14,455 bases of DNA from a virus (taxonomy: Duplodnaviria; Heunggongvirae; Uroviricota; Caudoviricetes), in IMG/VR virus record IMGVR_UViG_2698536576_000009, positions 1-14,455 of that record. One strand, given 5' to 3'. This document shows, one piece after another, positions 11,866 to 12,585 of this stretch; positions within the stretch are counted from its first letter, which is position 1; the number at the start of each line of letters is the position of its first letter. The notes under the pieces were generated by a model. The model did not search any database and was not told the DNA's origin. It saw nothing but the letters and a program-made list of their open reading frames with translations. Made by a program: the position numbers and the translations under genes.

Positions 11866-12585
11866 ATGGCGATGAACGACAATACTCTGCTCAGAAACTC
11901 CTCACTTTTTATCGCTTATATGGGCTGTCTTGGGTGGGGGAGTGCTTACTTTTATGGCTGGGGAACTTCTTTCTACTATGGTTTCCCATGGTGGATAGTG
12001 GGAGCTGGCGTTGATGATGTGGCCAGAAGCCTGTTTTATGCTGTTACTGTGATCGCAATATTCCTGACTGGATGGGGAGTAGGTATTGTTTTCTTTTTAG
12101 GCATAAAACAAAAAAACAATATACAGAATTTGAGTTTTATCAGACTTTTTCTGGCAATATTGCTGCTTTTTATTCCGCCTGTTCTGGAGTTTTCGGTAAT
12201 TCATCAGCACGTTGAGCCAGATGTGCTGTTTTTTTGTGTTATTGCTGCCTTTACAATTACGCTTTTTGTCAGGTCAGGAAGAAGACTTATTTCAGTCAAA
12301 TGTTTTTCGGAAGTGTCTTTTATTCGCCATCACCGAATTGAGTTTATTATGGCTGGATTCATGATTTATTTCTGGACATTCTCTCTTATTGCCGGTTGGT
12401 ATAAACCCCAGTTTAAGAGGGAATATCAGACGATCCACTATGAGAATACTTGGTATTACGTTCTTGCTCGTTATAATAATCGTCTTGTTTTGTCGGAAAG
12501 TTTTGCTCCAGAAGAGGCACGATTCATTATATTTAACACCGAGAATCATAATGACTATGAAGTCAAAATTGCCAGGGTGCGTTAA
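11866..12585 (+). CDS. polytopic membrane protein of unknown function (239 aa), AT-rich
   Basis: Several hydrophobic segments with aromatic/Gly-rich motifs (GWG, WW) and a polar C-terminal domain of about 60 aa; markedly AT-rich codon usage compared with the prophage backbone; an alternative ATG at 11872 has better RBS spacing (AGGGA). Confidence 0.7.
   Translation: MAMNDNTLLRNSSLFIAYMGCLGWGSAYFYGWGTSFYYGFPWWIVGAGVDDVARSLFYAVTVIAIFLTGWGVGIVFFLGIKQKNNIQNLSFIRLFLAILLLFIPPVLEFSVIHQHVEPDVLFFCVIAAFTITLFVRSGRRLISVKCFSEVSFIRHHRIEFIMAGFMIYFWTFSLIAGWYKPQFKREYQTIHYENTWYYVLARYNNRLVLSESFAPEEARFIIFNTENHNDYEVKIARVR

Follow-up and report, generated by a model that had tools for sequence, protein, structure and literature searches.

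The gene considered here lies in a 14,455-nucleotide (nt) stretch of viral DNA, positions 1 to 14,455 of the IMG/VR record IMGVR_UViG_2698536576_000009 (hereafter the window). It encodes a predicted inner-membrane protein and stands directly upstream of the genes for an AB5 toxin. The window corresponds to the early-right and late-regulatory region of a lambdoid Escherichia coli prophage. The link between the membrane gene and the toxin is positional, and the gene is very probably an independent moron, not a toxin accessory. As the best explanation overall we favor, with moderate confidence, an autonomous single-gene moron occupying the slot after the antiterminator gene Q, alongside which the toxin cassette was inserted. 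For the specific activity of the protein, a role as envelope or host-adaptation factor is possible, and we propose it tentatively. The protein itself is an ordinary member of a catalogued family and as such not surprising.

Independence is indicated by the comparison with E. coli loci that carry no toxin. Homology to these loci covers 11709-12585 exactly (up to ~12498 in some lineages), and is found again from 13879 onwards, with the holin. As judged from these alignments, a terminator-like hairpin, a promoter-like site and the open reading frame (ORF) of the membrane protein form one mobile unit, which ends at the stop codon. Because homology stops at 12585 and resumes at 13879, the toxin cassette is a separate insert. 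The converse arrangement, a related toxin-plus-holin block without the membrane gene, is found on the E. coli plasmid p1054c. This plasmid, from a chicken E. coli, holds the closest toxin relative in complete genomes (78% identical), with a shorter A gene and a holin pseudogene.

The distribution of the gene points in the same direction. A sensitive nucleotide search retrieved a homologue from 1197 of 5426 complete E. coli genomes (~22%), and in a gene-plus-toxin query of the complete E. coli genomes no record spanned both the membrane gene and the toxin. The protein cluster at 90% identity has 441 member sequences, some of them on 1000 or more contigs, while in the same survey the toxin subunits were found on 38-55 contigs only. 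The viral contigs were represented by the 80 best loci, a panel of redundant prophage lineages and not of independent samples. AB5-like genes lie downstream of the membrane gene in two of these loci, and none was present within ~6 kb in the other 78. Nearly always, the gene directly follows a Q antiterminator, either of a 273-amino-acid (aa) type or Q82-like (PF06323). With the PF06530 type of the window, this makes three unrelated Q families that precede it. The downstream cargo is variable (a 65-aa ORF, a DNA methyltransferase, TerB, DUF3927 or a SASA esterase), and is followed by one of two holin types. Among sequenced free phages, the membrane gene was present in three of 50,697 records. 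Orphan copies lie between rpoH-like and mqo-like ORFs in Haemophilus ducreyi (neighbors assigned by eye), between guaA and a sulfate transporter gene in Neisseria arctica, between a yedK-like SRAP-domain gene and a umuC-like gene for an IMS-family polymerase in Klebsiella aerogenes, and next to an sseJ-like gene in Salmonella arizonae.

The unit also appears to carry its own regulatory signals. All eight aligned Escherichia-type upstream regions share the motif CTTGAC, 17-18 nt, TTTGTTATG(T/A). One of the eight is from a plasmid of enterotoxigenic E. coli (ETEC) that lacks Q, the alignment being lost there upstream of the -35 element. The hairpin is kept in six of these regions, and changes in its stem mostly preserve the pairing. 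A 46-nt fold over the hairpin gives an alternative pairing (z = -2.1), and its identity as a terminator-like feature is moderately supported. Together, the hairpin, the conserved promoter-like site and the Q context give a layout that fits a shielded, lysogen-expressed moron. We also considered whether the promoter-like site is the Q-dependent late promoter pR'. For the window this is unlikely, because the motif is common to the three Q families and the Q-less plasmid, and because Q is followed by a distinct promoter-like site (10783-10812), an isrK-type leader and a strong terminator. In the phage 434 group, the conserved promoter may be pR'. Two further signals were seen inside the membrane gene. 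One is a terminator-like hairpin with seven T's (12205-12238; 9-bp stem, z = -1.9). The other is a good promoter match (12450-12477; TTGGTA, 16 nt, TATAAT), which lies ~170 nt before the toxin B start and near ~12498, where homology to some toxin-free lineages stops, and which could be the toxin's own promoter.

The toxin cassette was identified by Pfam and NCBIfam matches. Its genes are ordered B before A and overlap by eight nucleotides (B ends at 13061, A starts at 13054). Both subunits have ordinary N-terminal signal peptides, as seen by eye, and the holin/endolysin cassette comes next, so that no dedicated exporter is needed. An earlier note on this DNA, made from the sequence alone, had placed the membrane gene directly upstream of the toxin B gene, and this holds: 62 nt separate its end from the toxin B start on the same strand. 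The promoter-like site which the note had proposed around 11804..11833 is present, and its conservation goes together with that of the gene in every Escherichia context examined. The AT-rich composition that it described as common to gene and toxin was recovered too, with a GC content of 0.394 for the membrane gene and 0.36-0.39 for the toxin genes (whole window, 0.475). We reject it as evidence that gene and toxin were acquired together: family members have a GC content of 0.32-0.39 wherever they are located, and low GC is therefore a trait of the family. The suggestion that the protein might be an export or release accessory of the toxin found no support. The gene is widespread without an adjacent toxin, as in the E. 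coli genomes and the 78 viral loci above, and the two do not regularly co-occur, neither in viral loci (two of 80) nor on plasmids of heat-labile enterotoxin type I (LT-I; 19 of ~70).

These LT-I plasmids are one of several settings in which family members adjoin other toxins. There, a 72%-identical member lies ~870 bp from eltAB and is divergent from it, the gene for heat-stable enterotoxin b (STb) is ~3 kb away, and insertion sequence (IS) elements surround the region. The 19 carriers in PLSDB are mostly porcine, ~50 plasmids are without the gene, and human-type LT plasmids match eltAB and ~250 bp only. The adjacency may go back to an origin of the LT-I region in a prophage. A second case is the locus L086, in which a family member is immediately followed by a 110-aa signal-peptide protein (6829-7161) and a 263-aa protein with 56% identity to LT-I A (7180-7971), with a class II holin behind them. 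From its sequence this pair looks like a toxin of the LT/cholera toxin (CT) family, in B to A order, in a prophage late region. Another IMG/VR prophage (L027) has two homologues of ArtB/SubB-like B subunits (44-45% identity) ~+4.5 and +6.1 kb from the family member, and our query panel matched no A subunit there. The literature places Shiga toxin (Stx), LT-II and ArtAB between Q and the lysis genes (PMC9732031). We read the toxin adjacencies as footprints of a shared Q-to-lysis insertion hot spot, not as functional pairing.

Table 1. Features of the window and of the LT-I plasmid loci; positions in the last three rows are those of the plasmid loci
Feature	Position	Strand	Remarks
DUF968 and RusA genes			left of Q in the gene order of the window
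Q antiterminator gene	10383-10778		PF06530
Promoter-like site	10783-10812		right after Q; TTGACC, 18 nt, TATATT
isrK-family small RNA	10819-10895		74 bits; ends in a strong terminator, z = -5.1
C4-type antisense RNA	10923-11007		76 bits; upstream of the ORF6N gene
ORF6N anti-repressor-like gene	11042-11623		between the C4-type RNA and the membrane-protein ORF
Terminator-like hairpin	11706..11730	+	AAACCCGC-CGCTGA-GCGGGTTT and T run; left edge of the mobile module
Sigma-70-type promoter-like site	11804..11833	+	-35 TTGACT 11804-11809, 18-nt spacer, extended -10 TGtTATGTA 11825-11833
STM1630/'TfpB'-family inner-membrane protein, coding sequence	11872..12585	+	237 aa
Most conserved segment	11899..12042	+	first transmembrane (TM) helix TM1, aromatic/Gly-rich loop 1, start of TM2; residues 10-57, SSLFIAYMGCLGWGSAYFYGWGTSFYYGFPWW..GAGVDDVARSLFYA
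C-terminal polar domain	12403..12582	+	~60 aa, residues 178-237; predicted periplasmic
AB5 toxin cassette	12586..13878	+	1.3 kb; neighbor of the membrane gene, outside its unit
Toxin B subunit	12648-13061	+	PltB/SubB-like
Toxin A subunit	13054-13791	+	ArtA-like; 276 bits (NCBIfam equivalog cut-off, 457, not reached)
Holin	13885-14319		PF16931
Family member, LT-I plasmid loci L018-L023 (e.g. CP122871.1, CP024145.1)	4001-4714		
eltA, same loci	2358-3134	-	
eltB, same loci	1987-2361	-	

The exact proteins of the window are on record from E. coli assemblies only. The stretch 10783-11007, with its promoter-like site, isrK RNA and C4 RNA, resembles the isrK/anrP module of Gifsy-1, yet belongs to an E. 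coli prophage. Further to the left, the window holds a hok/sok-type toxin-antitoxin locus (sok RNA at 7816-7991, 121 bits; Hok-like ORF at 7929-8141) and, at its left end, a DicF antisense RNA (175-226, minus strand).

The membrane ORF is a genuine coding gene, as indicated by purifying selection (ratio of non-synonymous to synonymous substitutions, dN/dS, of 0.10-0.21 against 12 homologues) and by its full-length match to PHROG 1521, which speak against a chance ORF. The ORF given in the earlier note, 11866-12585, exists on the plus strand and encodes 239 aa. Its start was not retained: gene callers and RefSeq homologues begin at the second ATG, at 11872, which removes two residues and gives 237 aa. 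The motif AGGGA lies 5 nt upstream of this ATG, and the exact protein with this start is present in NCBI assemblies, labelled PF27470:TfpB. Several database homologues are frameshifted or internally deleted (P0073, P0074, P0096, P0060), and many entries are truncated, which suggests that this accessory membrane gene decays often.

Where the note recognized no family, one could be assigned, and the matches show that the protein belongs to the STM1630 family, equivalent to PF27470 'TfpB' and PHROG 1521. PHROG 1521, of unknown function, matches at E = 1.9e-86 (residues 19-239 against positions 1-221 of the 222 in the profile), and precomputed annotation assigns PF27470 to the exact protein and to all 99 homologues. 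In the newer RefSeq annotation, the E. coli homologues are named 'STM1630 family protein'. The link to STM1630 was confirmed from sequence: the arm of a published STM1630 knock-out primer encodes NSSMLLAYLGGLGWG, an exact match inside P0209, a Salmonella enterica homologue of 238 aa with 49% identity to the window protein at 100% coverage. The family is small: of 1.84 billion cluster representatives, 71 matched at E < 0.001. Where a source could be named, it was Enterobacteriaceae, Pasteurellaceae or Neisseria, except for two metagenome bins that carry the labels Veillonella and Acinetobacter and may result from mis-binning. Other resources gave little. Pfam-A, in a copy older than PF27470, and NCBIfam had no match to the membrane protein, a Pfam scan of 31 diverse members returned scattered matches at E above 0.001 only, and a profile search of PDB sequences found nothing below E = 0.6. 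The Pfam name presumably derives from tfpB, which we take to be an ORF of the type-4 pilin inversion region of Moraxella. No Moraxella member appeared in three homologue searches, one of them seeded with the Neisseria/Pasteurellaceae clade. The Acinetobacter baylyi 'TfpB' of recent papers is an unrelated PilB-like ATPase, and elsewhere in the literature 'TfpB' is a chemical abbreviation.

The architecture agrees with the note's description of about five hydrophobic segments rich in Trp, Gly and Tyr and a polar C-terminus. Kyte-Doolittle hydropathy gives four strong segments (~53-78, 86-110, 115-136 and 155-176) and a weaker, Trp/Tyr/Gly-rich one at the N-terminus (~10-36), and the last 60 residues are polar. 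An AlphaFold2 model from a 58-sequence alignment (predicted local distance difference test, pLDDT, 80.8; predicted template modelling score, pTM, 0.75) has five long helices (5-36, 47-78, 89-111, 116-135 and 155-181) and a C-terminal beta domain (184-235) of five strands (184-190, 193-201, 204-208, 219-222 and 231-235; pLDDT 81-88). The mean number of Lys and Arg residues over 30 homologues is 3.0 and 3.1 in loops 2 and 4, and 1.0 in loops 1 and 3. From this, the N-terminus is predicted to be cytoplasmic, and both loop 1 and the C-terminal domain to be periplasmic. The predicted topology is thus N-in/C-out, with five TM helices in the inner membrane. Alignments and the model show the protein to share the architecture of its family: a length of ~235-250 aa, the N-terminal motif AY.YGWG..YYG.PWW, five TM helices and, after GxY(K/R)P, the C-terminal beta domain. 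Conserved positions concentrate in TM1, loop 1, the start of TM2 and the junction between TM5 and the beta domain. In the C-terminal domain they are K178, P179, Y185, Y195/196, R200, L207 and S208. Among 58 diverse members, G175 is the sole invariant position, and the near-invariant ones hold A, Y, G, P or F. The family has no polar residue that is conserved throughout, which suggests that the protein is most likely non-enzymatic and acts by binding or obstructing. Foldseek found no match in BFVD at E <= 0.001, and solved and viral predicted structures showed no resemblance past generic helical bundles.

These features can be combined into a possible mode of action. In the lysogen, the sigma-70-like promoter of the unit would drive the membrane gene, while the hairpin would insulate it from upstream transcription. 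Upon induction, Q-modified late transcripts would read through it. In the predicted topology, the aromatic/Gly-rich loop 1 and the beta domain would face the periplasm, on the envelope of the lysogen. There, the protein would bind or obstruct an envelope or periplasmic partner and not catalyze a reaction. By analogy with its Salmonella relative STM1630, its role would most likely be that of an envelope-modifying factor of lysogenic conversion or host adaptation.

Several observations weigh against an autonomous moron of this kind. Three different AB5 toxins adjoin family members (ArtAB-like in the window, LT-I, and the LT/CT-like pair), and the family may thus have a generalist toxin-related role. 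The toxin-adjacent fraction of the viral loci is indicative only, because the panel is redundant. A strict consensus scan did not list the promoter-like site upstream of the gene, whose promoter is thus inferred from a conserved consensus match. The periplasmic orientation depends on the weakly hydrophobic first segment truly spanning the membrane. Finally, a hypermotile STM1630 mutant came from a screen (PMC4219756), and this phenotype is missing from those confirmed with clean deletions (PMC4534456).

Could the membrane protein nevertheless help to export, assemble or release the adjacent AB5 toxin, or protect its producer? The two genes are neighbors on the same strand, the short gap between them holds no terminator, and the LT-I and LT/CT-like adjacencies repeat the association. 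We consider this very improbable, since the great majority of family members have no toxin nearby, the LT-I plasmids of human ETEC lack the membrane gene, and the related toxin-plus-holin block of p1054c exists alone. Furthermore, where gene and LT-I do meet, they are divergent, ~870 bp apart and among IS elements, and in the window the module boundary falls exactly at the stop codon of the membrane gene. Standard signal peptides are present on both toxin subunits, with a lysis cassette downstream. The window protein also has no domain that breaches peptidoglycan or membrane, such as a TtsA-like muramidase or parts of a secretin or type II secretion system. ADP-ribosylating AB5 toxins act on eukaryotic targets, so a membrane protein giving immunity against the toxin is not expected. 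The position between Q and the holin in nearly all prophage contexts, sometimes with the holin only ~700 nt further on (at +1419 to +1458), would suit a membrane protein that times lysis as an antiholin-like or other holin regulator in the late operon. This too is hardly plausible, as the gene precedes two unrelated holin types with 0.7-5 kb of variable cargo in between, and is present on plasmids and at chromosomal loci without lysis genes. With 237 aa, five TM helices and a periplasmic domain, the protein is unlike known holins and antiholins, for which a small size, 1-4 TM helices and obligate linkage to an endolysin cassette would be expected.

A function in defense has somewhat more in its favor. 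A superinfection-exclusion or anti-phage protein, which blocks an incoming phage at the envelope or kills the infected cell, would fit a moron made up of one gene and its own promoter, located in a prophage hot spot shared with TerB/DUF3927-type genes. An inner-membrane location with conserved surfaces predicted to face the periplasm, a patchy distribution and the frequent frameshifted copies agree with it as well. PADLOC gave a weak, non-significant match to AbiC (E = 0.0027) and none to any other defense model. At 15.3 bits, the AbiC match aligns residues 56-114, which are TM segments, to positions 9-66 of a 306-position profile, and we reject it as a composition effect limited to TM helices. 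With this 15-bit match as the only PADLOC result, no evidence points specifically to abortive infection, though the protein may still be the independent membrane-acting factor that the note named as an alternative. Copies between housekeeping genes in H. ducreyi and N. arctica would be unusual for an exclusion gene, as would the Salmonella copy, which lies between the SseJ and SteB effector genes and has SPI-2-type expression (SPI-2, Salmonella pathogenicity island 2). The rarity in sequenced free phages is a further argument against exclusion, which we therefore regard as rather unlikely. Less likely still is an orphan immunity gene, whose product protects against a membrane-targeting bacteriocin, a colicin or a contact-dependent toxin. 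The gene is a stand-alone polytopic membrane gene in many unrelated loci, its product has no catalytic signature, and the hot-spot neighbors TerB and DUF3927 are associated with colicin and phage resistance. Yet no cognate toxin gene was seen beside any copy, and Pfam, NCBIfam and PDB revealed no similarity to known immunity families.

This result removes a tempting but mistaken link between gene and toxin, as the cassette in the window can do without a membrane partner of its own. It also draws attention to a very common, uncharacterized gene with its own conserved promoter-like site and no fold relatives. Its carriers include about one fifth of complete E. coli genomes, O157:H7 among them, most Salmonella enterica (as STM1630), porcine ETEC LT plasmids and phage 434. 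Only scattered virulence-related phenotypes are available, in Salmonella, and the family is a reasonable target for knock-out and over-expression. A bolder idea, to which we give a small chance, is that STM1630/'TfpB' proteins represent a novel type of single-protein envelope gatekeeper, carried by lambdoid prophages in the Q-to-holin slot and domesticated by several pathogens. If so, the loop and the beta domain would bind an inner-membrane or periplasmic machine, such as the one through which phage DNA enters or the platform on which flagella or pili are assembled. Lysogens would gain phage exclusion, altered surface appendages and an altered host interaction, and the repeated AB5 adjacency would be a by-product of the same insertion hot spot.

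Comparison with known systems begins with the release of typhoid toxin. TtsA resembles the window protein only in the idea of a release helper encoded beside an AB5 toxin. The muramidase TtsA is soluble and phage-endolysin-like, whereas the window protein has five TM helices and no hydrolase domain, and its family is mostly found without toxins. Closer in kind are P22 SieA, HK97 gp15 and T4 Imm, likewise small or medium-sized inner-membrane moron products, for which a similar action is plausible. They have 2-4 TM helices, are not known to carry the beta domain, and occupy other genome positions. No sequence or fold similarity between these superinfection-exclusion proteins and the window protein was detected.

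The best-studied relative is STM1630 (SL1344_1560) of Salmonella. It belongs to the same family, has about the same length (238 aa), is AT-rich, and forms a single-gene unit with its own promoter. Unlike the window gene, it is chromosomal, between the effector genes steB and sseJ, and not in a prophage late region. STM1630 is bound by H-NS, is expressed in SPI-2-inducing medium and inside macrophages, and has its own mapped -10 element, in which two single-nucleotide polymorphisms silence the gene in sequence type ST313. It is dispensable for growth in lysogeny broth (LB), its deletion in strain 4/74 increases intramacrophage replication, and signature-tagged mutants were reported to be attenuated in calves and chicks (all PMC6785131 S1 Text). 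It is also listed with genes co-regulated with SPI-2 (PMC2639726). This comparison gives context for the window gene, not mechanism.

In its genomic setting, the nearest counterpart is CPT_434_68 of phage 434 (OL657226), annotated as 'putative membrane protein' and 56.5% identical over the full length. The announcement paper of phage 434 reports no function for it. It differs from the window gene in having a Q82-type Q upstream and, downstream, TciB, a small membrane protein, a SASA esterase and a pinholin, with no toxin. Like the window gene, CPT_434_68 directly follows Q and a terminator-like hairpin, and carries the same promoter motif.

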